From Heterodontus francisci (taxonomy: Eukaryota), in contig NC_090412.1 in assembly GCF_036365525.1 (NCBI RefSeq), positions 11,822,123 to 11,886,122 of the forward strand: a stretch of DNA of 64,000 bases, written 5' to 3'. The notes under the pieces are model-generated. The model saw only the letters and a list, made by a program, of their open reading frames with translations, did no database searches and was not told where the DNA came from. Made by a program: the position numbers and the translations under genes. Below are positions 8,270 through 51,026 of this stretch, piece after piece (the first letter of the stretch is position 1; every line of letters starts with the position of its first letter).

Positions 8270-11200
8270 AAAAAATATATTCGGGGGATGTGGGTGTCAC
8301 TGGTTAGGCCTGCATTCATTGCCCATCTCTAATTGCCCTTGAGAAGATGGTGGTGAGCTGCCTTCTTGAACCGCTGCAGTCCTTGGTGTGTAGGTACACC
8401 CACAATGCTGTTAGCGAGGGAGTTCCAGAATCTTGATCCAACGACAGTGAAGGAATGGTGATATAGTTCCAAGTCAGGATGGTGTGTGGCTTAGAGGTGA
8501 ACTTGCAGATGGTGGTTTTCCCATGTATTTGCTGCCCTTGTCCTTGTAGGTGGTAGAGGTCACAGGTTTCAAAGGTACTGTCGAAGGAGCCTTGGTGAGT
8601 TGCTGCAGTGCATCTTGTAGATGGTACACACCGCTGCAACTGTGATGGAGGGAGTGAATGTTGAAGGTGGTGAATGCCAATCAAGTGGGCTGTTTTGTCC
8701 TGGATGGTGTTGAGCTTCTTGGCCGTTGTTGGAGCTGCACCCATCCAGGCAAGTGGAGAGTATTCCATCACACTCCTGACTTGTGCCTTGTAGATGGTGG
8801 ACAGGCACTGGGGAGACAGGAGGTGAGTTACTCACCACAGGATTATCAGTCTCTGACCTACTTTTGTAGCCTGCTCCAGTTCAGTTTCTGGTCAATGCTG
8901 ACCCCCAGGATGTTGATAGCAATGGTAATGCCATTGAACGTCAAGGGGAGATGGCTAGATTCTCTCTTGTTTGAGATAGTCATTGCCTGGCACTTGTGTG
9001 GTGCGAATGTGACTTGCCACTTATCAGCACACACCTAGATGTTGTCCAGATCTTGCTGCATATGGACATAGGTTGCTTCAGTATCTGAGGAGTCGCGAAT
9101 GGTGCTGAACATTGTGTAATCATCAGCAAACATCCCCACTTCTGACCTTATGATGGAGGGAAGGTCATTGAAGAAGCAGCTGAAGATGATTGGGCCTAGG
9201 ACACTACCCTGAGGAACTCCTGCAATGATGTCCTGGGACTGAGATGATTGACCTCCAACAACCACAACCATCTTTCTTTGTGTTAGATATGACTCCAACC
9301 AGTGGAGAGTATTCCCCCGATTCCCATAGACTCCATTTTGCTAGGGCTCCTTGATGCCAAACTCGGTCACATGCTGCCTTCATGACAAGATCAGTCACTC
9401 TCAATCCACCTCTGGAGTTCAGTTCTTTTGTCCATGTTGGGACCAAGGCTGTAATGAGGTCAGGAACTGAGTAGCCCTGGCAGAACCCAAACCGAGCATC
9501 AGTGAGCAGGTTATTGCTGAGCAAGTGTCACTTGATAGCACTGTTGACAACCCCTTCCATCACTTTGCTGATGATTAGGAATACATTGATAGGGTAGTAA
9601 TTGGCCAGGTTGGATTTGTCCTGCTTTGGAGTGCACAGGACATATCTAGGTTCCACATTGTCGGGTAGATGCCAACGTTGTAGCTGTACTGGAACAACTT
9701 TGCTAGGGGCACAGCTAGTTCTGGAGCACAAGCCTTCAGTAGTATTGCCGGAATGTTGTCAGCGCCCATTGCCTTTGCAGTATCCAGTGCCTTCATCCAT
9801 TTCTTGATATCACTTGGAGTGAATCGGATTGGCTGAAGACTGGCATCTGTGACGCTAGGAACCTCAGGAGGAGGCTGAGATGGATCATCCACTTGGCACT
9901 TCTGGCTTTTGCACTGATGTGCTGGGCTCCCCAATCATTGAGGATGGGGATATTTGTGGAGCCTCCTCCTCCTGTCAGTTGTTTAATTGTCCAGCGTCAT
10001 TCATGACTGGAGGTGGCAGGACTGCAGAACTTAGATCTGATCCGTTGGCTGTGGGATCGCTTAACCCTGTCTATTGCATTGTGCTTCTGCTGTTTGGCAT
10101 TCAGGTAGTCCTGTGTTGTAACTTCAACAGGCTGACACCTCGGACTGGATTTTAAGGAGCCGCCGACATCTGGATCTGTGGCGTGGTGGGGGGGGGGGGG
10201 GTTAGGGTTAGGGTTAGATGAACCCAGATGAGGCCTGCCATGGACCTCGACGCCAGTAGGGCCCGACCCTATCCTCCAGGCAGTAGAGAGGCACTGTGGC
10301 GGCCACCCCCGCCCCACCGGACCATAATCAAAGGCAAATGAATAAAATTAATAGATTTGCATGTACTTACCCTTAATCCTGATGAGCCTCTGTGATCTTC
10401 GGCCCGGTAGCTGGCACTCCCATGCCTTCGGATCCCTGTCCGGGGAAATGAGGTGCCACACTGGTGGGGATGGGGGAGGACGTAAGTTTATCAGTGCGAG
10501 ATGGGAGTGGATGGGATGGTGGGAAGGGTTGCATTTTAACCGTTGTGCAGTTTGGGGAGGGGGGAGGAGAGGTCCGATGGTAAACGTAAGTGTTTTGGGG
10601 GAAAGGGCAAATAATTAAGTTTATTGTCATTGGGGGGGGGGGCGGTGGTGGGAGAGGGGCCAAAGAAACGTATTTATTTGATTTCATTCAATCTGTCTTT
10701 AAATATTTAACTAAGACGGTAGGGCTGATTGCCTTTAAAAATGGCATCAGCACCTGCACATACGCAGCTGAGACCATTGCTGTGGAAGGACAGCCCGTCC
10801 CCGCCAAATGATCGGGGGGGGGCGGGGTAACGGCCCGCTCCAGCTATTTGAATGATCTGCTGAGTTTGAGATTGCGGCAGTTCTTTGGCATGCGGTGGGC
10901 GGGCCACCATTTTTAATGAAATCCAGCCCCTCATTTTTATCTGTGCCTGAGTGCTGCTCCTTGCATGCCCTCCTGCACTCTTCATTGACCCAGAGTTGGT
11001 TCTCCGGCTTGATGGTAATGGTAGAGTGGGGGATATGCCAGGCCATGAGGTTACAGATTATGGTCGAGTACAGTTCTGCTGCTGCTGATGGCCCACAGCA
11101 CCTCACGGGTGCCCAGTTTTGCATTGCTAGATCTCTTCGAATTTTCTCCCATTTGACACAGTGGTAGTGCTACACAACATGATGGTGGGTGGCCTCAGTG

Positions 11201-11390
11201 TGATGACGGGACTTTGTCTCCACAAGGACTGTGTGGTGGTCACTCCTACCAATACTGTCATGGACAGATGCATCTGCAACAGGTAGATTGGTGAGGACGA
11301 GGTCAAGTAGGTTTTTCCCTCTTGTTGGTTCCCTCGCCACCTGCCACAGTGCCAGTCTAGCAGCTGTGTCCTGTAGGCTGTAGGCTGAAT
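8270..11390 (-). mobile_element. Degenerate non-LTR retrotransposon (CR1/L2-group LINE; endonuclease end + RT), interrupted by a nested element
   Basis: Fragmented ORFs: PTRGKNLLDLVLTN...GRSDHHTV (APE), NYYPINVFLIISKVME, AGVPQGSVLGPIIF...NDLP...MFADD (RT). Its 11015-11390 portion is repeated at 24273 and 37531. Confidence 0.88.
10142..10929. mobile_element. Non-autonomous DNA element (PIF/Harbinger-like MITE) nested in the LINE
   Basis: TIR ggactggattt / aaatccagccc (11 bp, 1 mismatch) and 3-bp direct repeat ctc at 10139-10141 and 10930-10932. The LINE reads continuously when the insert is removed. Confidence 0.65.
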
Positions 11391-12264
11391 GGAGACGGCC
11401 AAAACACATTAGGACCCTGACAGTTAACAGACAAAGGGTGCTATCAACCCATCAATCTAAGTTGGATTTGAACCTGGAAGTGAAAGGCCAATCTCTAATC
11501 TTTTGCTTCCTCTTATACGTTAACATCTATTTTTATTCATTGCTCAGTGCATTTGGATGTCTTTCTGTGCACTGTAAGAAATAAGTACCTTGCAATGCAT
11601 CTTTCTTAAAATAGATACCATTTTGTTTCACATCACTCTATGATGTTATTTCTGTGTCACTTCCCATGTCTTGATTCAGAAGAGTGACAGACATTTTATG
11701 TAACAAAATGATCAGCACCAGTTTTTAATTTACCTTTGTATGTCTGTGGAATGACTATTGTGTATTTTACTTATGTTGTGAATCTCTGAGAATATAACAA
11801 TTAGGTAAATGGATGCTTTTCTACCAGCACTTATTGTTTTCCTTTTACACTTTTACATGAAGTTTAGTGTTGTCTCAATGAAAGGTATAATTTTAAAGAT
11901 GCATTTTGCAGGTTGGTCAGGACTTTTGAACATTTGCCACTCGGCCAACACACACATCACATCTGTACAGTAAGTGTCAGAATTCCAATAGTATCTGAAG
12001 GCAGTGTTCCTCTTGAACAAAATTTTATGCTCATTTATTACCAAGTGAAACATGGTGATTAAGGTCTTAAGGCAACTTTGTGCAGAACTAATGCTAGCTT
12101 GGCGAAAGCATTAATTGAGCAGATCCAACTAACTTAAACCATGTTACCTATTGCATCATGGTACAGGGAGTTCTCTATGATGATACCAGATTCAAACAGG
12201 ATCTTACATTTTGAGAGCAAACTAAAGTCTGCACATTGGAAGTGTTTTTTTCAATGTACTTCCG

Positions 12265-12685
12265 AACATGTCAACATAGGAACAGGAATGGCCCATTTAG
12301 TCCATCGAGCCTGTTCTGTCATTCAATGAGATCATGGGGGGTCGATCTTTGACCTAACTACACATACCTGCCTTTGCCTCATATCCCTTAATACCTTTGG
12401 TTAACAAAAATCTATCAACCTCAGATTTAAAATTAACAGCTGATCTAGCATCAATTGCCATTTGTGAAAGAGAGTTCCAAACTTCGACTAGCCTTTGTGT
12501 GAAAGAGTATTTCCAAATTTCACACCAGAAAGGTCGGGCTCTAATTTTTAGACTATGCATCTAGTCCTTGACTCCCCAACCAGCTGAAATGGTTTCTCTC
12601 TTTCTATCCTATCCATTCCCCTTAAAATCTTGAAAACTTCAATCAAATCACCCCTTAACTTTCTAAATACCAAGGAATACAATCC
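12265..12685 (-). mobile_element. Old CR1 3' fragment (copies at 25523-25943 and 38781-39201)
   Basis: HSLKIRARPF...SFTQRLVEVWNSL...FKSEVDRFL..KGIKGY, the CR1 ORF2 C-terminus. Confidence 0.75.
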
Positions 12686-13599
12686 TATAACAATGCATGA
12701 CAAATTGTATCAGGTAGTCGGTGTATATTAACATATTTGAGACATGGTGAAACTGGAGAAAATCAAGCCGCCTTCATGACTAAAATAATAGAGCATAACA
12801 AGTAACTAGACATTGCTAGAAGCTCTAAGGGAGATACAGTGAATGACTTTCATCAGATCCTAACCAGCAAGTATATGGTGTGCTGGGCGATAGTGATATT
12901 TTTCATTTTACTAAGTTTGATTATGGGCTGATTCCTCTTTCTGCAATCATGAAGCAGAATTGATGCTTCTCACCGACAACCCTGGATTATCACTGTAGAT
13001 GTTCCCAACTGAAGAAAGATACATGTTCTTATCTATAGAAGCTGCACTATAAATAACGTTTGTAAGACATTTATAACAAATTCCACCAGCTATCTGTAAA
13101 CTTTCCTAGCGTTTGTTATATATGTATGTATGGAAGACAAGGTAGTTAGGATTCAAATTTGTTCTTTGGTTCGTTCTCTAAAACCTTCCCAATAAATAGT
13201 TACATTCTCAAATTCACAAAAACTAGACAGATACTTTCAAGGAAGTTGAATGTAGGGTAATTTATTTTATGAAAGTTTTATAAACAATTATAGATGTATC
13301 TTGGTATTATGAAATATTCAGCACTGCTAGATCTAGACCTCCAAAAGCAGGGGACCATTATTAGGAATGCTGACTGCACATATTGGGAAATCATGGCTGC
13401 ACTCTGCTCAATACATTTCCCCAGCAATCCCCTAATAAGTGTTCACTGCTTCATCTTTTTAAGGTATTTCCTTGTTCACCTGTACATTTTATCTAAGTTA
13501 CCCACTGCCTTGAGCTTGTGTAGCAGTCTCTCATGTGGAACTTTTTCCAAGAGTTTTCTGAAGGCTATGTTTTATTGCTAAATCAGTAGGGTATAAATC

Positions 13600-14090
13600 T
13601 GATGTTATCATGCTGAACTTTCTAGTGCTTTTGTAAGGCCACACATTGAATACTACCCTTGGCTAGAACAAGGGAGTCATGAAAGCCAAGTGATGCAAAG
13701 AGGGGCAATGCAGCTAATCTAAAGTGCCATAGGACTGAGTAATAAGGAGAGATAGAGTTTGATCTCTTTAGCCTCAAAAGGAAGTGAATGAGAGGAAACC
13801 TAATAGATGTATATAAATGGTATGGAATGGAATAGCTAGCTAATTCTAAGCATTATTGCCAGTTAAGAATGCAGGACAAACAGACATGGGTACAAACTGG
13901 GTAAAAGCTCAACTTAGGACCAATGTCAGGAAGCACTTCTTCACACAGGGTGATCAATATCTGGAATGGTAGAGTAGTCAGGCCAAAACTTCTGGAGTCT
14001 TCAAAAGGCAGTTAGACAATATAATGGGGGGAGGGCAGAGACTTTAGGTTTTTAAGGAAGGATGAACTGAAAGAGCCAAATGACTGCCTT
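13600..14090 (+). mobile_element. Highly decayed CR1 3' fragment (triplicated)
   Basis: Nucleotide resemblance to the CR1 end (gtaaggccacacattgaatac; gtcaggaagcacttcttcacacag; ctggaat). Confidence 0.5.
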
Positions 14091-14104
14091 CATTGTTGTG
14101 ATTC

Positions 14105-14325
14105 AACACCACCAAAAACAGATTAACTGTCCATTTCTATCAATGCTGTTAGTTAATGGGATCTTGTGTACAAAATAGTTGCTATGCTTACATACATGGC
14201 CAGTCCTATGGCACTTTGGATCAGCTGCATTGCCCCTCTTTGCATTTCAAAGCAATTCAATGTACGTTAAGTGCTTTGAGACATTTTTAAGAGACATGAA
14301 AAGGTGCTATATAAATGCAAATCTT
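14105..14325 (+). mobile_element. DeuSINE/L2-tail-like fragment (similar tails at ~16010-16085 and, on the minus strand, ~19295-19355)
   Basis: Tail motif ...aagtgctttgagac...catgaaaaggtgctatataaatgcaa and cattggctgtaaagcgctttgggat...gtgaaaggcg..ataaatgcaa. Confidence 0.5.
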
Positions 14326-16499
14326 CTTTTATATTAAAGATTCAGAATTCATATTGGCCTGAGATTTTGGGTTCCAATCCAAATGAGACATATTAGTTCT
14401 GGGGACTGTTACAATTTTCAAATTGTCATAGAGGGTCAAATACTTCAAGTTCACATACAAATTGGGTAAGATGCAGAATAATGATTCCCATTCTCACTCT
14501 ATCCCAATACTGTCTCCCAGAAAAACATCTGGAAGTGGTCCAGTTTAGATTTCTCTTTCTCACATTGGCCCCCTCACTTCATTGAGATTGCCACTTTTGT
14601 GTGAAATTATTCCTTTGAGTTCAGGATTTATGCCCCCAGGGTCTGGATTTGACTGCCCAAACCAATTTCACTCAGGGTTCTTATAGAAAACACTAAAAGA
14701 AAAATTGCATCAAACTGGATTGAAACCCTGATCTCAAGTGTGAAAGTGTTGTAATGCATTTTTACCACTTTCTAACTCACCTACATTCCATGGTGCAATC
14801 CCTATCTGACACTATAGTCAGAGGTTTTCTTCAATGATCACTGACCTTCAAGGCAAGCTTTTATTTACTATTGTAATTTTGTTTTGGGTGCATTCACCGT
14901 TTATGAGGAGTTACAAAGACGGACAGGTAAAGACCCTTTGGTGCATCCAACCTGTCCCACCAGGAGTTCTGAATATTTGTGCCTGAACAGACGGAAGAGA
15001 GGGAGATTTTATACAGTATATCACCTAAAATTGTGAAGCAACAAAGTACATAACATTAATAACTTGCCCCAGATCAAAGAGGTAGACAGTAAATCATTCC
15101 ATAAAACAATGTTTATGGTACACTTGTCAAGCATAATTTTGTATGAATCCAGAAGCTGGGGAATTAAGAAATTGTCTCCCTCGCAATACCCCTTCCTTCC
15201 ACAAGGCGACGCGGATAAATCTTTATTGGCAAGGTCCAGGAACTCAGTGAGGTTCAATTGGGAGTTGATCGCTGTGGCGGTAATGATTTATTAAAACGTG
15301 TTACACCCGTTTTAGACAGGAGGTCGTTGACTTTCAGAGTTTCATCTTTCGATGCTGTCTCAAATCCCACAGAAACAGTAATACTTGCTGTCCAAGGGAC
15401 GCTGCTTTGAATCACATTTCCTGACAGTTGGTTCCCATTAATTTTCTTTTTTCTAATCAGCGCATTTCCGAGTAATGATGTAAGACTGCTCGGAGTCAGT
15501 AATCTTACACTGGGTTCTGGTTTGACATTCCATGGGGTATCAATCCCATTGACTGATTTCACAGCCAATGTGCAAAGTTCTCACTGGAGGGAGCTATCTG
15601 ACCTTAATTTAAATACTTGGCGAGTTTACACTTTCTCCTCCCCACTCGGTAAATAGTATTGGGACATGTGCAAGAGAGCACTCTAGAACAAGACAATTCA
15701 GAGTTCTGACAAGGAAGGAGCCAACACTGCCAAACTGGAATCTTCAACTGCTGAGAAGGGAATACAGGCAGAAGTAAAAGTGTGAGATAACTTCTGGAGA
15801 GGCCTGACACACTCCATAGTGCATTTGCAAAACCGATTGGGGCCCATGTTGCTAGTTTTAATGGCACTTCAATGCAAATACGCATCTAAAACTGCTTCAA
15901 AAGTCATAGTTGCAACTGCGTCCAATGTAGGGCCATTGTGTCCAGAAGATGTGTGGAGGCTAAGCCACAGGCTTTAACCTATTTGAAATCATTGGTTTAT
16001 TGATTGGACTCCAAAAGCACTTCATTGGCTGTAAAGCGCTTTGGGATCTCCTGAAGTCGTGAAAGGCGTTAAATAAATGCAAATCATTCCTTTTTTTAGC
16101 AGTCAGACTTTCTTCAGTTGCCGTTTTCACGAATTTCTAAATATGTTCCAAAATAACTAAGCTTGGAGATGTTAACCTGCAATCAATATTAATTATAGTT
16201 AGCCAAAAGACCTTTATAATCTTCTGTAGTTCAAGTCTTGTAAAAGCAGTCACCATGAGACTACATGTACAAAGCGCCCACCTGTCCAGAGAGGAGGAAC
16301 AAATCGGGGACATTTACCCGCAAGACGCTTGTCTATAAAGTGTACTTTTAAGAATGAGAGAGACAAAGATATGAGGCTTTAAAGTTGAATTTTAAAAGTA
16401 TATGTTTATCATATTTATTTTGGTTTAAAATTATATGTCGAAATGAATTTCGTTCATAAATTTCTTTTCATGAACTTCTCTAATCAACTTAAATATATT

Positions 16500-16695
16500 C
16501 TAATATATTTCATAAAAATATGTAATCCGCTGGATAGAATTTTGGTTTGGGTGATTTGAGCTGTTTTCTATGTCGAACCTCTGGCCGAGTTCAAGGTTAC
16601 GTCAGATAAGATTACTGTTAATGTGATTCGATGTAATCTCAAATTGTGAACGCGTCTGGTGTGAAGACAAACGCCTTGTCTACATTTGAGGAATC
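16500..16695 (+). promoter_or_regulatory. Putative LRIT2 proximal promoter with CRX/OTX-type sites (copies at 29758-29953 and 43016-43211)
   Basis: TAATCC at 16523, AGATTA (=TAATCT) at 16609 and TAATCT at 16634, all within 175 bp of the ATG of a retina-expressed gene. Confidence 0.5.
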
Positions 16696-16802
16696 ATGGA
16701 CATACTTTGGAACATTTACTGTCTTCTTCTGCTCTGTTCTGCTAAACGAACAGTTGCATCTTGTGTGCCGGAGTGTTCTTGCAGAAATGATAGCTTTGGA
16801 AG
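16696..16802 (+). CDS. LRIT2: LRIT2 copy 1, exon 1 (signal peptide + LRRNT)
   Basis: Read manually; not in the ORF track. ATG at 16696 gives MDILWNIYCLLLLCSAKRTVASCVPECSCRNDSFGR, followed by donor AG|gtgag at 16802/16803. Confidence 0.88.
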
Positions 16803-16906
16803 GTGAGAATCAGGTTTTCACTGTTGTTTGAGTTACCATTTCGTGAAATTTGTAGGTGTATATTTGAAAATGAGGATCGTTTGCAAATGTGTGTTTTGTT
16901 TTACAG

Positions 16907-17688
16907 AAGTTTGCTCTGCATATCTTCCTCTTTGCGAAGAATACCAGTGAATATTCCACCCGATATCAAAAAAATCAGAATAGAAAATTCTCGTCTGGCA
17001 GAATTACCTCGTGGTGCGTTCTCCGTAACCCGTGCCTTGGAATACCTGTGGCTGAATTTTAATGATATTACACTCATGCATGCGAAGAGTCTGCAAGATA
17101 TGACCAATCTATCCGAGTTGCGAATGCAAGGGAACAAATTGCGTTCAGTACCATGGACAGCTTTCCAGGATTGTCCCGCTTTGAAAATTTTGGATTTGAA
17201 GCACAATCGACTGGATGTTCTTCCAGAACATGCTCTGAGGTATCTCACCAACTTGACCTACTTGGACATATCCTTCAACCAGCTGACAGTGATTTCTCCA
17301 GATGTGTTCCTAAACTGGCCGGTCTATCAGAGAACACAGCAGGTTGAGGGTCAAGAGAAAAGTACCTCCAACGCAGTACTAGCTCTCCATAATAATCCAT
17401 GGTTCTGTGACTGCCGTCTTAAAGGTTTTGTACATTTCGTCAAATCCATCAGTCCCCCTATTATTCTGATGAATTCTTACCTATCCTGTTCAGGCCCAGA
17501 TTCCAGGGCAGGGAAATTTTTCTACGAAGTGGAACTAAAAAGTTGCTTTAAACCGTTAGCAACGTCTGAGAACGCGAATGTTAGTGTTCCACTTAGAGAG
17601 AAAGTACATCTTTCCTGTGAAGCCAAAGGAAATCCTACCCCTACAGTGTGGTGGACAAATGGTGTGAAGATCATTCGGAGATTTAATG
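16907..17688 (+). CDS. LRIT2: LRIT2 copy 1, exon 2 (LRRs, LRRCT, Ig start)
   Basis: Acceptor ttacag|A at 16906/16907 and donor AAT G|gtatgt at 17688/17689. Motifs IRIENS, LEYLWLNFN, SVPWTAF, VFLNWP and ALHNNPWFCDCRL match LRIT2. Confidence 0.93.
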
Positions 17689-17932
17689 GTATGTTCCTAT
17701 TGTCACTATCTGAAAGTTAGCCTTTTTTTTTTACCTTCTTACAATAGCATTTAAAACCGCATTCTGGAAAACGAAAGCCACAAAGTTTACCACCTTTTTA
17801 TGAGATGGCTTTTGAGTCTAACAAAAGTTTAATTTATAGACCACCAAATGATACATCACGTGATTTATAAAGGAATTACATTATGAGTACTTACAAAATC
17901 TTGCACATAGTCTGACTTTCCATAAATGTCAC

Positions 17933-18252
17933 GTTTACTTTATTTAGAGATACAGCACTGAAACAGGCCCTTCGGCCCACCGAGTCTGTGCCGACCAACA
18001 ACCACCCATTTATACTAACCCTACAGTAATCCCATATTCCCTATCACCTACCTACGCTAGGGACAATTTACAATGGCCAATTTACCTATCACCTGCAAGT
18101 CTTTGGCTGTGGAAGGAAACTGGAGCACCCGGGGAAAACCCACGCAGACACAGGGAGAACTTGCAAACTCCACACAAGCAGTACCCAGAATCAAACCTGG
18201 GTCCCTGGAGCTGTGAGGCTGCGGTGCTAACCACTGCGTCACTGTGCCGCCC
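17933..18252 (-). mobile_element. tRNA-derived V-SINE (HE1-like) in LRIT2 intron 2; copies at 31191-31510 and 44449-44768
   Basis: tRNA-like head ggcggcacagtg..gcagtggttagcac, V-domain gtgtggagtttgcaagttctccctgtgtctgcgtgggttt, CR1-like tail gggccgaagggcctgtttcagtgctgtatctct. Confidence 0.85.
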
Positions 18253-19610
18253 TCAAGTTATCACTTGCTGCACACTTAGTACCATTTTGTTGATAACCCC
18301 CTTATTATAAAGTAGTAGACCCTCTAAATCACCATGAGGAAAACCCTGAGATCTGTTAGTGTATGTGTATATATTTCGTATAAGACATCAATGCAAACTG
18401 TCATTTCTGGGTTGGTTGTGGGCTAAATGATAAAGATTGATTGCTATGATTAATTGACAACTCTATTAGCAGTATATCATGCGACAGTAGAAGGGAACTA
18501 GATGGGTCTTGGACTTTTTTCATCCTGCAAGTCCTAGTTTCCTAAACCATAACTTGATTCCTCAGAGTATGCAGATTAATTTTATTAATTAATATTCAGT
18601 AATTTTGCTGCTCTGATATCAGACCCCATTGTACTTCTGCACCCATGACATCACAAACCAATAACGTTCTAACCAGTTTAGTTGTCTACAGCAACATAGT
18701 ATTTCATGAAGGAAATTAAGGAAAGTATAATTTGCTTGCATCAAATGCGGAGGGATGGATTATGAACATTTTTGATGTTCTTTAACTGGTCTGGAGTCAA
18801 TTTGCCATTATATCAGTGAAACTCATTCCTTTATGCTTGGGATAAATTGGGTAGCACTTTTCTGACCATTGTACTACCACTTCTGTCTCAATGCAAAGTG
18901 ATCTCAGGTGTACAACACAGCAATTTCACCATATAACTTGCAAGTCAGAATTCCTTCGAATTTCTAAACACAGTTAAGGTGAGTTGTGAGATCAGCTGTA
19001 GTATTTAGTCATATCTCATTTGGGGTTCCAACCTGATGTTGTATAACTACAACCCAGGTCATCGTCAGAATTTTAAAAGTATCCAAGTCATCGATTGGAG
19101 CGCTTGGGCCATTAATAATATCAACAAGTTCAGAGAGAGCCCAGATTCCAACCTTACTCCCTCATAACATTAGAAATTGGATGTCAGGACGGTCAATCTA
19201 TGACGTCAACCATATCTAAAGACCCCTATTTGCTGCACTCAATGCACCCTGCAGTAATAAGTAATGTTACAGATTCAAAAAGGTTGAAAAAAGAAATACT
19301 TGCATTTAGAGAGTGCTTTTCATGAACACAAGCTATCCCAAAGCACTTTACAGCCAATTTAGAACTTTTGAGTTGAGTAAAACTTTTTTTTAAAAGAAGA
19401 GTGCAAGGATGTTGAATTGCAGGAAAAGACATGCAATTCCCATCTCACTCTGTTAAGTTTCTGTACCTGAAGTAATTTGACTCAATGTTTTTCCTTTGTG
19501 CTTATGGTGGGAGCTTAGACAATATTATATACATTTTATATAAAACTGTGAATAGTTTGCATTAATAATGGAAATTATGTAAATAAAACAAATCTTTATA
19601 TTAATTATAG

Positions 19611-22570: not shown

Positions 22571-22895
22571 TCATAGAGTCATAGTCATAGAGAGATACAG
22601 CACTGAAATAAGCCCTTCGGCCCACCGAGTCTGTGCTAACCACCAACCACCCATTTGTATTAATCCCATATTTCCCTACCACATCCCCTCAATTCTCCTT
22701 GCACCTACCTACACGAGGGGCAATTTACAATGGCCAATTTACCTATCAACCTGCAAGTCTTTGGCTGTGGGAGGAAACCCTGCGGAAACCCACGCGGTCA
22801 CAGGGAGAACGTGCAAACTCCGCACAGGCAGTACCCAGAACCGAACCCGGGTCACTGGAGCTGTGATGCTAACCACTGCGCCACTGTGCTGCCCC
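22571..22895 (-). mobile_element. tRNA-derived V-SINE (HE1-like); copies at 35829-36153 and 49087-49411
   Basis: Same head, V-domain and tail as above; inserted into a short CR1 3' fragment. Confidence 0.85.
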
Positions 22896-40500: not shown

Positions 40501-43211
40501 AAAACTTCTGGAGTCTTCAAAAGGCAGTTAGACAATATAATGGGGGGAGGGCAGAGACTTTAGGTTTTTAAGGAAGGATGAACTGAAAGAGCCAAATGAC
40601 TGCCTTCATTGTTGTGATTCAACACCACCAAAAACAGATTAACTGTCCATTTCTATCAATGCTGTTAGTTAATGGGATCTTGTGTACAAAATAGTTGCTA
40701 TGCTTACATACATGGCCAGTCCTATGGCACTTTGGATCAGCTGCATTGCCCCTCTTTGCATTTCAAAGCAATTCAATGTACGTTAAGTGCTTTGAGACAT
40801 TTTTAAGAGACATGAAAAGGTGCTATATAAATGCAAATCTTCTTTTATATTAAAGATTCAGAATTCATATTGGCCTGAGATTTTGGGTTCCAATCCAAAT
40901 GAGACATATTAGTTCTGGGGACTGTTACAATTTTCAAATTGTCATAGAGGGTCAAATACTTCAAGTTCACATACAAATTGGGTAAGATGCAGAATAATGA
41001 TTCCCATTCTCACTCTATCCCAATACTGTCTCCCAGAAAAACATCTGGAAGTGGTCCAGTTTAGATTTCTCTTTCTCACATTGGCCCCCTCACTTCATTG
41101 AGATTGCCACTTTTGTGTGAAATTATTCCTTTGAGTTCAGGATTTATGCCCCCAGGGTCTGGATTTGACTGCCCAAACCAATTTCACTCAGGGTTCTTAT
41201 AGAAAACACTAAAAGAAAAATTGCATCAAACTGGATTGAAACCCTGATCTCAAGTGTGAAAGTGTTGTAATGCATTTTTACCACTTTCTAACTCACCTAC
41301 ATTCCATGGTGCAATCCCTATCTGACACTATAGTCAGAGGTTTTCTTCAATGATCACTGACCTTCAAGGCAAGCTTTTATTTACTATTGTAATTTTGTTT
41401 TGGGTGCATTCACCGTTTATGAGGAGTTACAAAGACGGACAGGTAAAGACCCTTTGGTGCATCCAACCTGTCCCACCAGGAGTTCTGAATATTTGTGCCT
41501 GAACAGACGGAAGAGAGGGAGATTTTATACAGTATATCACCTAAAATTGTGAAGCAACAAAGTACATAACATTAATAACTTGCCCCAGATCAAAGAGGTA
41601 GACAGTAAATCATTCCATAAAACAATGTTTATGGTACACTTGTCAAGCATAATTTTGTATGAATCCAGAAGCTGGGGAATTAAGAAATTGTCTCCCTCGC
41701 AATACCCCTTCCTTCCACAAGGCGACGCGGATAAATCTTTATTGGCAAGGTCCAGGAACTCAGTGAGGTTCAATTGGGAGTTGATCGCTGTGGCGGTAAT
41801 GATTTATTAAAACGTGTTACACCCGTTTTAGACAGGAGGTCGTTGACTTTCAGAGTTTCATCTTTCGATGCTGTCTCAAATCCCACAGAAACAGTAATAC
41901 TTGCTGTCCAAGGGACGCTGCTTTGAATCACATTTCCTGACAGTTGGTTCCCATTAATTTTCTTTTTTCTAATCAGCGCATTTCCGAGTAATGATGTAAG
42001 ACTGCTCGGAGTCAGTAATCTTACACTGGGTTCTGGTTTGACATTCCATGGGGTATCAATCCCATTGACTGATTTCACAGCCAATGTGCAAAGTTCTCAC
42101 TGGAGGGAGCTATCTGACCTTAATTTAAATACTTGGCGAGTTTACACTTTCTCCTCCCCACTCGGTAAATAGTATTGGGACATGTGCAAGAGAGCACTCT
42201 AGAACAAGACAATTCAGAGTTCTGACAAGGAAGGAGCCAACACTGCCAAACTGGAATCTTCAACTGCTGAGAAGGGAATACAGGCAGAAGTAAAAGTGTG
42301 AGATAACTTCTGGAGAGGCCTGACACACTCCATAGTGCATTTGCAAAACCGATTGGGGCCCATGTTGCTAGTTTTAATGGCACTTCAATGCAAATACGCA
42401 TCTAAAACTGCTTCAAAAGTCATAGTTGCAACTGCGTCCAATGTAGGGCCATTGTGTCCAGAAGATGTGTGGAGGCTAAGCCACAGGCTTTAACCTATTT
42501 GAAATCATTGGTTTATTGATTGGACTCCAAAAGCACTTCATTGGCTGTAAAGCGCTTTGGGATCTCCTGAAGTCGTGAAAGGCGTTAAATAAATGCAAAT
42601 CATTCCTTTTTTTAGCAGTCAGACTTTCTTCAGTTGCCGTTTTCACGAATTTCTAAATATGTTCCAAAATAACTAAGCTTGGAGATGTTAACCTGCAATC
42701 AATATTAATTATAGTTAGCCAAAAGACCTTTATAATCTTCTGTAGTTCAAGTCTTGTAAAAGCAGTCACCATGAGACTACATGTACAAAGCGCCCACCTG
42801 TCCAGAGAGGAGGAACAAATCGGGGACATTTACCCGCAAGACGCTTGTCTATAAAGTGTACTTTTAAGAATGAGAGAGACAAAGATATGAGGCTTTAAAG
42901 TTGAATTTTAAAAGTATATGTTTATCATATTTATTTTGGTTTAAAATTATATGTCGAAATGAATTTCGTTCATAAATTTCTTTTCATGAACTTCTCTAAT
43001 CAACTTAAATATATTCTAATATATTTCATAAAAATATGTAATCCGCTGGATAGAATTTTGGTTTGGGTGATTTGAGCTGTTTTCTATGTCGAACCTCTGG
43101 CCGAGTTCAAGGTTACGTCAGATAAGATTACTGTTAATGTGATTCGATGTAATCTCAAATTGTGAACGCGTCTGGTGTGAAGACAAACGCCTTGTCTACA
43201 TTTGAGGAATC

Positions 43212-43318
43212 ATGGACATACTTTGGAACATTTACTGTCTTCTTCTGCTCTGTTCTGCTAAACGAACAGTTGCATCTTGTGTGCCGGAGTGTTCTTGCAG
43301 AAATGATAGCTTTGGAAG
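43212..43318 (+). CDS. LRIT2: LRIT2 copy 3, exon 1
   Basis: Same sequence as 16696-16802 at offset +26516. Confidence 0.85.
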
Positions 43319-43422
43319 GTGAGAATCAGGTTTTCACTGTTGTTTGAGTTACCATTTCGTGAAATTTGTAGGTGTATATTTGAAAATGAGGATCGTTTGC
43401 AAATGTGTGTTTTGTTTTACAG

Positions 43423-44204
43423 AAGTTTGCTCTGCATATCTTCCTCTTTGCGAAGAATACCAGTGAATATTCCACCCGATATCAAAAAAATCAGAATAGA
43501 AAATTCTCGTCTGGCAGAATTACCTCGTGGTGCGTTCTCCGTAACCCGTGCCTTGGAATACCTGTGGCTGAATTTTAATGATATTACACTCATGCATGCG
43601 AAGAGTCTGCAAGATATGACCAATCTATCCGAGTTGCGAATGCAAGGGAACAAATTGCGTTCAGTACCATGGACAGCTTTCCAGGATTGTCCCGCTTTGA
43701 AAATTTTGGATTTGAAGCACAATCGACTGGATGTTCTTCCAGAACATGCTCTGAGGTATCTCACCAACTTGACCTACTTGGACATATCCTTCAACCAGCT
43801 GACAGTGATTTCTCCAGATGTGTTCCTAAACTGGCCGGTCTATCAGAGAACACAGCAGGTTGAGGGTCAAGAGAAAAGTACCTCCAACGCAGTACTAGCT
43901 CTCCATAATAATCCATGGTTCTGTGACTGCCGTCTTAAAGGTTTTGTACATTTCGTCAAATCCATCAGTCCCCCTATTATTCTGATGAATTCTTACCTAT
44001 CCTGTTCAGGCCCAGATTCCAGGGCAGGGAAATTTTTCTACGAAGTGGAACTAAAAAGTTGCTTTAAACCGTTAGCAACGTCTGAGAACGCGAATGTTAG
44101 TGTTCCACTTAGAGAGAAAGTACATCTTTCCTGTGAAGCCAAAGGAAATCCTACCCCTACAGTGTGGTGGACAAATGGTGTGAAGATCATTCGGAGATTT
44201 AATG
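43423..44204 (+). CDS. LRIT2: LRIT2 copy 3, exon 2
   Basis: ORF translation identical to copy 1 at offset +26516; splice sites intact. Confidence 0.9.
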
Positions 44205-46126
44205 GTATGTTCCTATTGTCACTATCTGAAAGTTAGCCTTTTTTTTTTACCTTCTTACAATAGCATTTAAAACCGCATTCTGGAAAACGAAAGCCACAAA
44301 GTTTACCACCTTTTTATGAGATGGCTTTTGAGTCTAACAAAAGTTTAATTTATAGACCACCAAATGATACATCACGTGATTTATAAAGGAATTACATTAT
44401 GAGTACTTACAAAATCTTGCACATAGTCTGACTTTCCATAAATGTCACGTTTACTTTATTTAGAGATACAGCACTGAAACAGGCCCTTCGGCCCACCGAG
44501 TCTGTGCCGACCAACAACCACCCATTTATACTAACCCTACAGTAATCCCATATTCCCTATCACCTACCTACGCTAGGGACAATTTACAATGGCCAATTTA
44601 CCTATCACCTGCAAGTCTTTGGCTGTGGAAGGAAACTGGAGCACCCGGGGAAAACCCACGCAGACACAGGGAGAACTTGCAAACTCCACACAAGCAGTAC
44701 CCAGAATCAAACCTGGGTCCCTGGAGCTGTGAGGCTGCGGTGCTAACCACTGCGTCACTGTGCCGCCCTCAAGTTATCACTTGCTGCACACTTAGTACCA
44801 TTTTGTTGATAACCCCCTTATTATAAAGTAGTAGACCCTCTAAATCACCATGAGGAAAACCCTGAGATCTGTTAGTGTATGTGTATATATTTCGTATAAG
44901 ACATCAATGCAAACTGTCATTTCTGGGTTGGTTGTGGGCTAAATGATAAAGATTGATTGCTATGATTAATTGACAACTCTATTAGCAGTATATCATGCGA
45001 CAGTAGAAGGGAACTAGATGGGTCTTGGACTTTTTTCATCCTGCAAGTCCTAGTTTCCTAAACCATAACTTGATTCCTCAGAGTATGCAGATTAATTTTA
45101 TTAATTAATATTCAGTAATTTTGCTGCTCTGATATCAGACCCCATTGTACTTCTGCACCCATGACATCACAAACCAATAACGTTCTAACCAGTTTAGTTG
45201 TCTACAGCAACATAGTATTTCATGAAGGAAATTAAGGAAAGTATAATTTGCTTGCATCAAATGCGGAGGGATGGATTATGAACATTTTTGATGTTCTTTA
45301 ACTGGTCTGGAGTCAATTTGCCATTATATCAGTGAAACTCATTCCTTTATGCTTGGGATAAATTGGGTAGCACTTTTCTGACCATTGTACTACCACTTCT
45401 GTCTCAATGCAAAGTGATCTCAGGTGTACAACACAGCAATTTCACCATATAACTTGCAAGTCAGAATTCCTTCGAATTTCTAAACACAGTTAAGGTGAGT
45501 TGTGAGATCAGCTGTAGTATTTAGTCATATCTCATTTGGGGTTCCAACCTGATGTTGTATAACTACAACCCAGGTCATCGTCAGAATTTTAAAAGTATCC
45601 AAGTCATCGATTGGAGCGCTTGGGCCATTAATAATATCAACAAGTTCAGAGAGAGCCCAGATTCCAACCTTACTCCCTCATAACATTAGAAATTGGATGT
45701 CAGGACGGTCAATCTATGACGTCAACCATATCTAAAGACCCCTATTTGCTGCACTCAATGCACCCTGCAGTAATAAGTAATGTTACAGATTCAAAAAGGT
45801 TGAAAAAAGAAATACTTGCATTTAGAGAGTGCTTTTCATGAACACAAGCTATCCCAAAGCACTTTACAGCCAATTTAGAACTTTTGAGTTGAGTAAAACT
45901 TTTTTTTAAAAGAAGAGTGCAAGGATGTTGAATTGCAGGAAAAGACATGCAATTCCCATCTCACTCTGTTAAGTTTCTGTACCTGAAGTAATTTGACTCA
46001 ATGTTTTTCCTTTGTGCTTATGGTGGGAGCTTAGACAATATTATATACATTTTATATAAAACTGTGAATAGTTTGCATTAATAATGGAAATTATGTAAAT
46101 AAAACAAATCTTTATATTAATTATAG

Positions 46127-46932
46127 TGTCTGTCACAAATATTGATGAAGAAACAGTGAAGTCAGTGCTGGTGATTCCATCAGCCCACAGTACAGATGAA
46201 GGAAGTTACATTTGCATTACTACTAACTATCTTGGAAACTCATCTGTGCGGATTCTGGTGACAATTTTAACTTCAGAAACTTTACCTACCCCATCATCCT
46301 TGTCCCCTTCATCCTTGGAGGAGGAGAATGTTTATATAGATGTTAGGATTGCAAAGCAGACAGTATATGGCATAACCCTGGAGTGGTACACAGCAACACG
46401 GAACCCTGCTGAAACCTGGTACACCCTGCACTTCGGGAAATTTGAAGATGCTAAAAAGGAAATGATTTACATCGGACCAGGGGTAAATACTTATGCAATT
46501 AATGATCTGTTTCCAGCAACAAAGTACAAGGTGTGCGTGACACTGAGGAACCAGCCTCCGAAGAGAAGTCAATGCATTATATTTGTTACAGGTAGTGATA
46601 TCAGTGAAATGGAGCAAAGAGAGAAGCTCATTCACATTATAGTCATTGTGTGCGCCATGGTTTTGGCAGTCCCAGCAGGAATGTACGCTTGTACGACAGA
46701 GACCCGTTTCAGCTGCTTTGATAGATGTGGCAAGTTTTGTCGAAGACAAAGACGAGGAGAAAAAACGCTGAAGACTGGAGCACGGGATGTCACCTTTGAC
46801 AGTTTGCAGACAGGCAGCGATGCTGAACTCTGTAACAGAGACTCCAAGGAAGACAGGAGGCGACGTAAAAAATCAGATGACAAAACCCATAAGACCAAAA
46901 CCGAGCACAAGAATAGTGATGAATTGTATTAG
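46127..46932 (+). CDS. LRIT2: LRIT2 copy 3, exon 3
   Basis: ORF translation identical to copy 1 at offset +26516. Confidence 0.9.
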
Positions 46933-49900
46933 ACAAAACTAGCATTAGCTTGTTTTCGTCAAAACCTACTTAAGGCACCAGTGAATATTTTATAATTAGG
47001 GCTGGATGCCCTGACTATATTACACATCTGTTGACAATATGGCACAGTTATTGTGGTCTGTGTTAAAACATGACTATCTGTTATTGCCATTTATAGACAC
47101 ACTTCTGGCATCGAGATTAAATAGCCATTAACAAACAGAGTAAAAATCTTATATATGCTAGCTGATCTCCTGTAGTATTTTACATGGGGAATTAAAAGCA
47201 AGTGTTGTCTTCAGGTGAAGTGGGGTTAGAGGGCAGGATACAATTTGACCAGGGTACACTGGTCCACATTTTATGTCCCACTTTATGTAATATTTTGATT
47301 TAATATTTATAACTAAAAACACATGACAAGTTGGGAGGCAGAGAAATAGTTAGTTGGAGGCTGATGTTCTCTACAGTATAAGCTGGGAGACATAGAACTA
47401 ATGGGCTACAGTGCCATCACTGGTCGGAGGATTTAATTATAATGTGATAGGTTTACATAGACAGTTTCAATTATGTGTCGGCATAGAAATTCATAATGGA
47501 ATAAATGCAGGTGTAGGATTTTTGATATTATTTCTTCTGTGTATTATATGTTACTTATATCATATCAAAGGATTAACTTTCTCACAATTTTACTTTGCCA
47601 CAAAGGCATTTGGTCAAATGCAACTAAAATAAATTTAATTCAAAGCACAAGTTCTTACCTAAACTAGTCAATGAAAAACATTCAGGAAGATGAGGATGTG
47701 CTGAATGTTGTACAGCTGTTCAGGAATATCCTGTAAAATAACTATTAAAAAGAGGTTAACATAACTTGTAAACTAACAAAAGTACTAATAAAGATAGCCA
47801 GCACTTGAAAAACATTTTTAAAATTACTCATTATCACCTGAATAGGATTGTTTGCATCAACCCAATTTTTGAATAGGTAAACTAATCCTAGGGATAAAAT
47901 CAACCTTCGGTATAGATCCAGTCAAAGGAAGAGATGTTCCAAGCCAGCAAAAGCATAAGATAGCAGCGAAAGAAACTATGAAGAGTCAGAGGTGGAGCGG
48001 GGAGTTTACTCATAAGTACAGCATAGCAAAAGACAGAAAAGTGATTGATATGAATCACTGGTCACTCAAAGACCAATAATAGAAGGAAGTCAAGATGGTT
48101 TGTTAAGAAAATAAAAATGATGAGATTGGTGAACCCATGTTCATGAATCTTAGGTCAAAAAAGCAAGGCAATTGAACATGTCACCCTTTCAAGAAGCTGG
48201 TTAGCTTGGGGGAAAATCCTATCAGCATTGAGCTAATCAAGTTTTACGAATTTGTGTTTACCATAGTTCAAAAGGACAAGTATGAAGTACTAATATGTGT
48301 AAAGGTCAGGTTATGAAGATGTGATTGAGATGGAAAATTGTCTGTTCACTTTAGGTCAAGTTGGAAAAAATGTGAAGAAATATATAGGAAAAAGTAGATG
48401 AAAGCCAACATTTTAACCAAATATAAATGAGTTACGCACAGTATCAGATTTAATTGGTTGAAAATAATGAAAGGAAAGTATGGATTATAGACTGTTTCAC
48501 AAGGTATGAAGCACTGAAGTGTCAAGAGATTGTTATTGCACAATTTCATTCTATGAATAGCTTGCATGAAATTGGCTTAGTGCACATTATAAATTAAGAA
48601 CACAGCATCAGTGGAATTTATTGTGAAAAAACTATAGAGATAGTGTAATGGAAGAATATATTTAATCATTTTCTGTGACCATTCAAAGAAGTAACACATA
48701 CACAGTTTGAAATGGATCCAACATATGTATCAATTTATACTTGATCTACTTCTACTCCTAAATATTCTAAAACTTTTTTAAAAATCGACAAGATACACAA
48801 TGGTGCTGAGTAACTCACCTAATCAGCTATTGTCCATCCGAAGTTTAAATCAATCCTTATATTTTTTTATCTAGAAATATTAAGGAAGCATAGAAATAGT
48901 TTTAAGGAAGATTATTTAATATTTGACTCTTCATTCGCTGAGAAAATTGCTATTTTTTATCAGTCTGCTCAATTTTTGTAGTGTAATCAACTCAATGAAA
49001 TTACATAGTTAATTAGAATTTTACAGCACAGAAACAGGCCATTCAGCCCAGCGAGTCTATGCCATTGTTTATGCTCCAAATGCACCTCATAGAGTCATAG
49101 TCATAGAGAGATACAGCACTGAAATAAGCCCTTCGGCCCACCGAGTCTGTGCTAACCACCAACCACCCATTTGTATTAATCCCATATTTCCCTACCACAT
49201 CCCCTCAATTCTCCTTGCACCTACCTACACGAGGGGCAATTTACAATGGCCAATTTACCTATCAACCTGCAAGTCTTTGGCTGTGGGAGGAAACCCTGCG
49301 GAAACCCACGCGGTCACAGGGAGAACGTGCAAACTCCGCACAGGCAGTACCCAGAACCGAACCCGGGTCACTGGAGCTGTGATGCTAACCACTGCGCCAC
49401 TGTGCTGCCCCATTTTATTTCATTTAACCCTAGCAACACATCATAGAATCATAGAAATCACTTACATGGCATATGAAAATTGTTTTCGACCAAGCATAGC
49501 TGACCTTTGTGCCCAACTGAGGGAGTGGTGGACAGAGGGAAAAAACTACAGAGAAAGAATAATAAGTGCTGAAACACCATATGGAATATCCATTAGAAAT
49601 AGCCAGATTCATCCCAGAAGGCTTAAGAGTCTAATTGCCCATTTGATAGTACCTTCCCAGTTGGGAGAAGAGGATAACCAGAGGCTGGCAGCAGCTCAGT
49701 GTTGCCCTTTCAGTAGCTGGATCATAAGTTCACTGCCAGCAGTAACAGCCTTTCCAAAAGAAAATCCACAGTCATTCAGATTTTCTTAGCTTCTAAAATT
49801 GCAGTCATTTTGTTAGCCATTCTAAAACTGCACTGAACACTCATATAAAAGAATAATTTAAACATCTAATCATTTGAATTAATAAAATGAAATGAATTGC

Positions 49901-50511
49901 ATATCTAAAGATGGAAGAAAGCTCTCCTAATGGCTCAGTGAGCTTATCGAATATTTAGCTAAACACAGCAGAAAGGTCTTACACTGAATCGAGTGTTGAG
50001 GTAGCTAATCCCATTACAACTTCTTTCAGCACTGTTGTGTTGGGGGAGAATTGGCCACAGTTCCTCCTCCTGATCAGAATCCACAAAGTTCTGATCTAAG
50101 TGTTTGTGCTTGAACTTCAAATTTCATGGTGGGTCTTGGTTGTGATGCCTGCGACAGTGGAAGAGCTGAGCTGAACTCTCAAGGCTTTACAGGTAACAGC
50201 TAAGTACAATGGGTTAGGTACAAGATGGCCTGTGGAACTACACTCCAGTGACAAATCAACTCCTTCAGGAGATAAGGGAGGCGAATGACGAGCATGCACA
50301 AAAAATTATTGCATACATAAATACACAAATAAATACTTAACAAGAAAGTGGAAGAGAAAGAAGTCAAAGTGTGAATGAAACTAAATTTAAATCACTGATG
50401 GAGCCCCATGATATTAAAGCAAAATACTGCGGATGCTGGAAATCTGAAACAAAAACAAGAAATGCTGGAGTCACTCAGCAGGTCTGGCAGCATCTGTGGA
50501 AAGAGAAGCAG

Positions 50512-50548
50512 AGTTAACGTTTCGGGTCAGTGACCCTTCTTCGGAACT
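50512..50548 (-). ncRNA. Minimal hammerhead-like motif, opposite-strand copy (also at 23996-24032 and 37254-37290)
   Basis: Reverse complement of 51027-51063. Confidence 0.5.
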
Positions 50549-51026
50549 GACAAATATTAGAAAAGTCACAGATTATAAACAAGTGAGGTGGGGGTGGGGC
50601 GAGATAACAAAGGAGAAGGTGCAGATTGGACCAGGCCACATAGCTGACCAAAAGGTCACGGAGCAAAGGCAAACAATATGTTAATGGTGTGTTGAAAGAC
50701 AAAGCATTAGTACAGATTAGGTGTGAATACACTGAATATTGAACAGCAGCAAGTGCAAACCTGAAGAAAAACAACCTGAAAACCCACTGTTTTTTTCAGG
50801 TTGTTTTTCTTCAGGTTTGCACTTGCTGCTGTTCAATATTCAGTGTATTCACACCTAATCTGTACTAATGCTTTGTCTTTCAACACACCATTAACATATT
50901 GTTTGCCTTTGCTCCGTGACCTTTTGGTCAGTTATGTGGCCTGGTCCAATCTGCACCTTCTCCTTTGTTATCTCGCCCCACCCCCACCTCACTTGTTTAT
51001 AATCTGTGACTTTTCTAATATTTGTC

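Follow-up and report, generated by a model that had tools for sequence, protein, structure and literature searches.

A Penelope-like hairpin at the edge of three identical LRIT2 copies in a horn shark genome assembly: a candidate trigger of tandem amplification

In the genome assembly of the horn shark, Heterodontus francisci, the LRIT2 gene is encountered three times in a row. Was the gene truly amplified in the animal and, if so, what set the amplification off? The window, i.e., the whole stretch of 64,000 nucleotides that was analysed, does not contain a single N. The array (positions 11015-50790) consists of three units of 13,258 bp plus 2 bp (GT) that are found both where the unit begins and in the right flank. 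At an offset of 13,258 bp, the segments 11015-37532 and 24273-50790 are identical at 26,518 of 26,518 positions, with zero mismatches in a single unbroken match, and the initial annotation, which had reported three identical tandem units of this size, is thereby confirmed. Unit 1 (11015-24272, plus strand) is continuous with the left flank and, therefore, represents the ancestral left side; a LINE reading frame at 10747-11169 reads through position 11015 in this unit only. Unit 2 (24273-37530, plus strand) has a new junction at both ends, and unit 3 with the 2-bp microhomology (37531-50790, plus strand) joins the right flank via an intact hairpin. A composition scan of the sequence revealed nothing notable; Tandem Repeats Finder is blind to a period of 13 kb.

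Each unit carries LRIT2 on the plus strand (16696-20416, 29954-33674, and 43212-46932), with 5,681 bp before the ATG and 3,856 bp after the stop codon, in agreement with the ~5.7 and ~3.9 kb estimated earlier. The exons of copy 1 (16696-16802, 16907-17688, and 19611-20416) are bounded by GT-AG sites, and their coordinates shift by +13,258 per copy. Copies 2 and 3 are identical to copy 1, and all three specify the same intact protein of 564 amino acids with LRR, Ig, and FN3 domains, which is identical to the NCBI-named LRIT2 record P0002 and shows 75-87% identity to the 11 next records (P0003-P0013). Pfam matches on the exon ORFs comprised LRR_8, Ig, and fn3, those of exon 3 to fn3 and I-set scoring under the curated cut-off, and the transmembrane segment is a hydrophobic stretch picked by eye in the translation. 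A tree was built from 19 of 120 matches of an LRIT2 search, eight of 120 matches of an LRIT1 search and the upstream exon, with LRIT3 left out; because the protein matches were clustered at 90% identity, identical copies do not show up in them. The amplified gene was placed in the LRIT2-named clade and its upstream neighbor in the one named LRIT1, with 100/100 support each, and the last exon of the downstream gene is 100% identical to a horn shark CDHR1 record. By this clade placement and exon identity, the gene names and the order LRIT1-LRIT2-CDHR1 given previously hold, as does the statement that the neighbors were not amplified: the downstream exons of LRIT1 (546-7687, plus strand) and the last two coding exons of CDHR1 (59208-62362, minus strand) flank the array and are not part of the repeated unit. 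The locus is like the LRIT1-LRIT2-CDHR1 locus of vertebrates in gene order, orientation, and domain content, but unlike it in that LRIT2 is present three times in this sequence. Three TAATCY sites (16523-16639), candidate CRX/OTX-type motifs, are located <300 bp from the ATG in each unit, where 0.55 would be expected (P = 0.019 in a single test, picked after looking). Several polyadenylation-like signals are also found inside the unit, and all LRIT2 copies should be expressible.

The two junctions in the array reveal how the units are connected. At junction 1 (24273-24274), a hairpin loop is joined to the interior of a LINE by the 2-bp microhomology GT without any insertion, and junction 2 (37531-37532) is base-identical to it. 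The left breakpoint cuts, without homology, an old, broken LINE (8316-11169, minus strand), consisting of ORF pieces with an RVT_1 match at 9038-9340 and 26% identity to CR1 ORF2 at 8921-9796; its 5' part reaches slightly further into the unit. Recombination between dispersed repeats was considered and rejected for lack of breakpoint homology: only 2 bp are shared, the 100 bases outside the array ends match the unit at merely 20/100 and 17/100 positions, and no self-BLAST match links the ends. The microhomology is itself uninformative, since at least 2 bp are found in 17% of random joins. Likewise, a 6-bp mini-hairpin spanning the new junction was not used as evidence, because it was equalled by 5.8% of 3,000 random joins. 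G-quadruplex-like runs are located to the left of the left breakpoint, at a distance of 350-830 bp, with none at the breakpoint itself.

The right breakpoint is found after base 6 to 8 of the 10-nt loop (50783-50792) of an inverted repeat with arms of 333 bp, which are identical at 332 of 333 positions. In the collapsed window of 37,484 bp, the only perfect stem of at least 12 bp (spacer up to 100) is the one whose loop holds this breakpoint, and the chance of a breakpoint falling in that loop, computed after the fact, is ~5e-4 to 8e-4. The left arm (50450-50782, minus strand) is pLTR-like, and the right arm (50793-51125, plus strand) is single copy and located outside the array; the sole mismatch between them is at 50932/50643. 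A tail of 31 nt (50419-50449, minus strand) is attached to the left arm only, and an open start of 25 codons from 50493 extends through this tail. The whole is enclosed by a 16-bp target-site duplication (50403-50418 and 51125-51140, plus strand), the right copy of which has its first base in common with the arm end; in the collapsed window, the 16-mer is found at these two places only. Finally, the right arm contains a minimal hammerhead-like motif (51027-51063, plus strand), which has its mirror counterpart on the minus strand at 50512-50548. The initial annotation contained neither the hairpin at the right breakpoint nor any mechanism.

Judged by this anatomy of tail, target duplication, and hammerhead-like motif, the inverted repeat is a young Penelope-like insertion. 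The insert retains only the 25-codon start, which is shorter than the minimum size for the searches, and is termed a "Penelope-like fragment" here, not a proven family member. Given the one-sided tail, the 16-bp target duplication, and the ribozyme-like motif, a MITE or DNA transposon was not retained as the source of the palindrome. Penelope-like elements have in common with the insertion an inverted terminal pLTR pair, a tail at one end (31 nt here), a target duplication, an ORF start inside the repeat, and possibly a minimal hammerhead motif (PMC8557442, PMC3846280, PMC11167929, PMC4209133), and tails of 30-40 bp have been described for them (PMC8557442, PMC3846280). In contrast, the insert of 706 bp lacks an RT or GIY-YIG ORF, its ribozyme-like motif has a core substitution, and its target duplication measures 16 bp vs. 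8-10 bp in the rotifer Penelope cases (PMC3846280). Compared with described motifs (PMC4209133), the hammerhead-like motif has a 4-bp helix I, an extra base before stem II, a G-C opening pair, and a palindromic 15.2-16.2, and it carries C at core position 4, where U is usual. The descriptor, which was composed after the motif was seen, matched 0.005 times per shuffled window. Folding gave no support, as the minimum-energy fold differs from a hammerhead (z 0.11), and an Rfam search of 50380-51160 yielded 34 matches, all under the gathering score, of which the best were generic miRNA hairpins and none was a hammerhead.

Units 1 and 2 both end with half of this insertion (23887-24272 and 37145-37530, minus strand), i.e., the target copy, the tail, the left arm, and six loop bases, without a hairpin partner. 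The predicted DNA fold of such a half reaches -89 vs. -437 kcal/mol for the intact inverted repeat. One difference separates the arms and none the units, for which P = 0.017 if they were equally old; the hairpin, thus, likely preceded the amplification, although the lone mismatch of the arms could have been introduced by reverse transcription. The earlier qualification of the amplification as very recent calls for a softer wording: at the mutation rate of 7e-10 per generation of the epaulette shark (PMC10587355), the lack of differences sets no more than a limit of ~1.1e5 generations on the age.

On balance, we lean toward a real, young tandem amplification that was begun by the transposon-made hairpin, with the junction present in the chromosomes of the animal. 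That there are exactly three copies is doubtful, and where the assembly shows three, the animal may have two, three, or more. The first event, which can be read from the sequence, was the insertion of the 706-bp Penelope-like fragment as an inverted pair 3.5 kb downstream of LRIT2, resulting in 333-bp arms flanking a 10-nt loop. Subsequently, the repeat would fold into a hairpin or cruciform, and a replication fork would stall or break at its tip. The broken end would then have been joined 13,258 bp upstream, inside the old LINE, by the 2-bp microhomology visible in the junction. This joining would have copied the whole of LRIT2 together with 5.7 kb of upstream and 3.9 kb of downstream sequence, and the new junction would have lost the hairpin. 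Further copies may have arisen by unequal crossing-over or by rolling re-replication in the same event.

The main rival is an assembly artefact, since the unit has approximately the length of one long read and the hairpin could end a contig; 13,258 bp is within the range of typical accurate long reads. We assign a sizeable minority of the probability to a pure artefact, with one LRIT2 per chromosome in the animal, and the initial annotation was justified in warning of an assembly effect. One contig would stop at the hairpin tip and the next would begin a read length upstream, at 11015; if the overlap were joined end to end, or the interval between anchors filled in, three seamless, identical copies could result. 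Such an artefact accounts at once for a breakpoint at the hairpin tip and for three copies, and pasting one consensus would yield perfect identity. Fold-back reads, however, would give inverted, not direct, copies. False same-locus duplications of about read length at contig boundaries are among the commonest assembly errors (10.1101/2020.05.22.110833), and the inverted structures of Penelope are said to trouble assemblies, chiefly short-read ones (PMC8557442). Like the array, false homotype duplications are identical tandem copies at the same locus of about read length, but they usually comprise two copies and a gap, which is usual but not obligatory (10.1101/2020.05.22.110833), whereas here three copies are joined at two identical junctions, both seamless and without Ns or filler. 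Negative gaps of scaffolders and artificial contig duplications are documented, but filler that yields an exact triple is not described in the portions available of these sources (PMC3504050, PMC8849508), and this step of the artefact is our own inference. A tandem arrangement of the two haplotypes is unlikely unless the region is homozygous and would not give three copies: the probability of zero differences between two haplotypes is 3e-12 at a π of 0.002, 1e-3 at 0.0005, and 0.27 at 1e-4.

It is improbable that the junction is real but stems from a minority molecule, such as a circle of 13,258 bp or a duplication made somatically at the hairpin, around which the assembler looped while the germline is single-copy. 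Assemblers normally discard rare junction reads, and two junctions needed to be laid down. Nevertheless, a circle closed at the junction would yield identical units and junctions, and extrachromosomal circles are reported to arise from hairpin-forming repeats (PMC11161834). Even less probable is copying of the gene by the Penelope machinery itself, with an antisense read-through RNA that contained the introns as the template for reverse transcription. In rotifers, intron-containing host genes can be moved between pLTRs (PMC3846280), and a pLTR-like arm that points antisense into LRIT2 ends each unit here. However, the rotifer gene sits between pLTRs with the target duplication around the whole, whereas here a pLTR is missing from the left end, the array ends have no more than 2 bp in common, the junction, which is at the loop, is ~270 bp away from the ribozyme motif, and the 26.5 kb of extra DNA contain no copying error. 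By this junction anatomy, reverse-transcription copying appears close to refuted.

Amplification begun by the hairpin, the reading preferred above, finds both support and opposition in work on inverted repeats and fork barriers. In yeast, inverted Alus of 320 bp with a 12-bp spacer lift rearrangements from 0.03e-7 to 617e-7 (PMC8053094), and forks stall at such an inverted repeat in primate cells (reviewed in PMC7999016). Non-homologous tandem duplications of ~10 kb have one breakpoint at a fork barrier and the other several kb upstream (10.64898/2026.02.20.706968), and a direct repeat of this size class with a non-homologous junction is present here. On the other hand, neither a detectable fork pause nor Mre11 attack was found in yeast with spacers of 9-10 bp, and the products deduced in yeast were hairpin-capped inverted dimers, not direct repeats. 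The fork-barrier model derives from BRCA1-defective mouse cells (10.64898/2026.02.20.706968). A broader, tentative proposal is that Penelope-like insertions, which build near-perfect inverted repeats of their own, act as fragile sites that move about the genome and give rise, in the germline of sharks, to direct amplifications of whole genes in units of ~10 kb, with LRIT2 truly threefold. If it is true, the locus shows the cause beside the product, i.e., the last copy with the intact hairpin and the other copies with a halved one.

Within a real amplification, the extra copies most likely represent neutral copy-number variation, and a selected increase in LRIT2 dosage that alters the vision of the horn shark is improbable. 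Each of the three intact copies has a promoter region and polyadenylation-like signals in its unit. Moreover, the eyes of zebrafish shrink upon lrit2 knockdown (PMC6951830), a screen for losses in mammals with poor vision considered LRIT2 as a candidate eye gene (10.1101/2022.02.25.481972), and in another species, the two members of an old LRIT2-named pair, 62% identical, appear to be located on one contig. However, no accelerated evolution of the LRIT2 protein was found in the tree (end branch 0.064 vs. a median of 0.11), mouse LRIT1/2 double knockouts resemble LRIT1 knockouts, and LRIT2 was reviewed as dispensable for formation of the outer plexiform synapse of photoreceptors in mouse (PMC12022667). 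Thus, the gene-dosage amplification of the initial annotation is unsupported in an adaptive sense; with a mutational cause at hand, selection is not needed.

By itself, the gene-level story is modest. A search of titles and abstracts, with subscription papers mostly outside its scope, retrieved neither an LRIT2 amplification in sharks nor a Penelope hairpin at a duplication breakpoint, and, according to a preprint, the natural triggers of ~10-kb duplications in cancer genomes remain unknown (10.64898/2026.02.20.706968). If real, the array would be a whole-gene amplification tied base-exactly to the tip of a hairpin created by one retroelement insertion. It would offer a testable, natural candidate trigger for a class of duplications so far modelled with an artificial barrier, as well as a naturally occurring dosage allele of LRIT2, whose product is a photoreceptor protein that is still poorly understood. 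If the array is not real, it remains useful as an instance of a gap-free and error-free false gene triplication in an annotated genome, with hairpin tips as places to check.

Among known systems, the array can be compared with the BRCA1-type "Group 1" tandem duplications modelled at the Tus/Ter fork barrier (10.64898/2026.02.20.706968; PMC8096281). In both, the repeat is direct and spans ~10 kb, short microhomology is present at a non-homologous junction, and the breakpoints are kilobases apart, one of them at a barrier there and at a candidate barrier here. They differ in that the array has three copies in a shark, apparently in the germline, with a DNA hairpin as the candidate barrier and no known repair defect. 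The inverted Alu pairs in yeast (PMC8053094) have arms of 320 bp vs. 333 bp here, with near identity and a short spacer in both. As in human PATRRs and other palindromes (PMC7999016), the breakpoint is within the palindrome, which is destroyed in the product, but the palindrome in the horn shark is not AT-rich and arose by one insertion. Whereas the known products of inverted-repeat fragility are translocations, deletions, and inverted dimers, the product here is a direct triple of a whole gene.

The initial annotation described a 13,258-bp unit that carries LRIT2 and occurs three times in tandem, and this description matches the sequence exactly. When the window is compared with itself at an offset of 13,258, a single unbroken match is found between 11015-37532 and 24273-50790 with 26,518/26,518 positions identical; the units show zero differences. 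N bases are absent from the entire window. The array consists of three units (11015-24272, 24273-37530, and 37531-50788) and 2 extra bases, and its two junctions, which are identical to each other, contain no inserted bases. These junctions are non-homologous: the start of the unit has only the 2-bp sequence GT in common with the right flank, and only 20/100 and 17/100 bases match beyond the array ends. Since random joins show microhomology of at least 2 bp in 17% of cases, these 2 bp decide nothing. A mini-hairpin (6 bp, 10-nt loop), equaled in 5.8% of random joins, lies across the new junction (24267-24288). The unit also contains two related interspersed repeats of ~310 bp that are ~80% alike (17936-18252, 22591-22895, and their copies), with more relatives in the flanks and none at the breakpoints.

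Each unit holds an intact LRIT2 gene of three exons with GT-AG introns. With the first in-frame acceptor of exon 3, all three copies encode a protein of 564 aa identical to P0002, a homologue-search record named LRIT2 at NCBI; identity to the 11 records that follow is 75-87%. A tree was built of 28 rows, i.e., 19 of the 120 listed matches of the LRIT2 search, 8 of the 120 of the LRIT1 search, both picked as named records with LRIT3 left out, and the upstream exon of the window. In this tree, the amplified gene falls into the LRIT2 group and its upstream neighbor into the LRIT1 group (support 100/100 each). The last exon downstream shows 100% identity over 187 aa to a CDHR1a record of the horn shark, Heterodontus francisci. 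Together, these matches bear out the annotated location of LRIT2 between LRIT1 and CDHR1. LRIT2 is not accelerated, because its end branch measures 0.064 vs. a median of 0.11. The annotated ~5.7 kb upstream and ~3.9 kb downstream of the gene also hold, as the unit takes in 5,681 of the 9,008 bases of the LRIT1-LRIT2 interval and extends 3,856 bases 3' of the stop codon. Near the LRIT2 ATG, the unit contains three TAATCY sites (P=0.019, in a test picked post hoc), which we take to be CRX/OTX-type motifs, and ten AATAAA/ATTAAA hexamers are found in the unit. All LRIT2 copies could be expressed. Two other LRIT2-named records, P0092 and P0102, are 62% identical to each other and may represent an old, retained pair from another species. 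The last intron of CDHR1 contains a diverged second copy of the transmembrane segment of the last exon (60680-60898, minus strand; 32% identity over 74 aa), which matched none of the best 8 of 120 CDHR1-search proteins above ~37%. An old pseudo-exon is one possibility, an alternative end missing from the annotation the other.

The left breakpoint falls within an old LINE with reverse transcriptase (RT) similarity at 8921-9796, and a reading frame at 10747-11169 crosses position 11015 in copy 1 only. Three G-quadruplex-like runs are located at 10188-10659, 350-830 bp left of this breakpoint; in one of them, a G14 run is followed by two telomere-like hexamers. The right breakpoint, a new finding that was absent from the initial annotation, lies within the loop of a hairpin insertion. 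Its arms, 50450-50782 and 50793-51125, show 332/333 complementary positions and enclose a 10-nt loop, and the right end of the array falls after base 6 to 8 of that loop. The strand folds back immediately past unit 3, and units 1 and 2 retain the left arm alone. In the 37,484-bp window collapsed to a single unit, this is the only perfect stem of at least 12 bp with a spacer of at most 100. By chance, a breakpoint would fall in its loop with a probability of ~5e-4 to 8e-4, computed post hoc. The loop region (50779-50799) shows four A on one side and seven T on the other, and slipped pairing, read by eye, could shrink the loop to 7 nt and leave a bulge of 3 nt; such a loop would be under the limit of 9 nt reported for Mre11 attack in yeast.

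Because an exact 16-bp direct repeat (50403-50418 and 51125-51140) brackets the hairpin, the insert measures 706 bp. Its left arm is longer by 31 bases, and an open start of 25 codons runs from 50493 through this tail. Penelope-like elements have been described with an inverted truncated copy beside the pLTR and a tail of 30-40 bp at one end (PMC8557442; PMC11167929), and a rotifer case has a 31-bp tail and an ORF start within the pLTR, but a target duplication of 9 bp rather than 16 bp (PMC3846280). A minimal hammerhead-like motif is further present in each arm. It shows features listed in PMC4209133: helix I is 4 bp long, stem II is preceded by an extra base, the opening pair is G-C, and the 15.2-16.2 pair is palindromic. 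The descriptor, devised after the motif was seen, gave 0.005 matches per window over 200 shuffles. This post hoc descriptor, a C at core position 4, a best fold that differs from a hammerhead, and an Rfam search with no hammerhead among its 34 matches count against a ribozyme. As the insert contains no RT or nuclease ORF, it is called a Penelope-like fragment. A near-intact CR1-type LINE on the minus strand between LRIT2 and CDHR1 (52916-56640), with endonuclease (55117-55875) and RT (52916-55180) in different frames, suggests that retroelements were recently active in this region.

The likelihoods that follow are judgements rather than calculations. The balance tips slightly towards a real chromosomal junction, whereas a pure assembly artefact, which explains the same anatomy technically, is less probable but substantial. 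One contig would stop at the hairpin tip and another begin at 11015, and filling of their overlap would yield three identical copies. False same-locus duplications at contig ends, about one read long, ranked with the most frequent errors of vertebrate assemblies (10.1101/2020.05.22.110833), and negative gaps (PMC3504050) and scaffolder-made duplications (PMC8849508) are on record. However, the passages concerned in the latter two papers do not describe an exact triple from such fills, which is an inferred step, and false duplications are usually gapped (10.1101/2020.05.22.110833), whereas the LRIT2 array has no gap and two clean, identical junctions. A junction derived from a minority molecule is improbable, and exactly three germline copies are rather doubtful.

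At the epaulette shark mutation rate of 7e-10 per base per generation (PMC10587355), borrowed for the horn shark, zero differences bound the age of the array at ~1.1e5 generations (5e4 to 5e5 across the rate interval). With so slow a rate, perfect identity is not as extreme for a shark as it might seem; the initial wording of a very recent amplification is somewhat too strong, since the identity of the units limits the age only to this bound. Given the one arm mismatch, equal age of hairpin and array has P=0.017, which suggests that the hairpin predates the array, unless the mismatch was a copying error at insertion. LRIT2 is found in photoreceptors and bipolar cells and binds mGluR6 and ELFN1, and in mice, outer plexiform synapse formation proceeds without it (reviewed in PMC12022667). 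Knockdown in zebrafish resulted in smaller eyes (PMC6951830), and LRIT2 was discussed as a candidate in a gene-loss screen in poor-vision mammals (10.1101/2022.02.25.481972). Nothing in the present evidence points to selection for LRIT2 dosage, so an adaptive reading of the proposed gene-dosage amplification finds no backing. The initial observation is confirmed, while its interpretation is supported in part only.

If the junction is real, the hairpin may have stalled or broken a replication fork, the resulting end would have been joined 13 kb upstream, and further copies could have arisen by later unequal exchange or rolling re-replication. Among the open-access papers listed, no title or abstract start gave a prior account of this LRIT2 amplification or of duplication breakpoints located at Penelope hairpins. 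In yeast, rearrangements rose ~20,000-fold with inverted Alus of 320 bp separated by a 12-bp spacer (PMC8053094). Forks stall at such an inverted repeat in primate cells, and human palindromes break recurrently (reviewed in PMC7999016). Non-homologous duplications of ~10 kb have been reported in which one breakpoint lay at a fork barrier, the other kilobases upstream (10.64898/2026.02.20.706968; PMC8096281). The proposed mechanism would fit these precedents imperfectly: yeast spacers of 9-10 bp showed no detectable pause and no Mre11 attack (PMC8053094), the products deduced for yeast inverted repeats are inverted dimers whereas the horn shark locus carries direct repeats, and the fork-barrier model, as presented, requires a BRCA1 defect (10.64898/2026.02.20.706968). 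Hairpin-triggered tandem amplification is already known as a kind; if the array is real, the novelty would be a hairpin made by a retroelement as its trigger.
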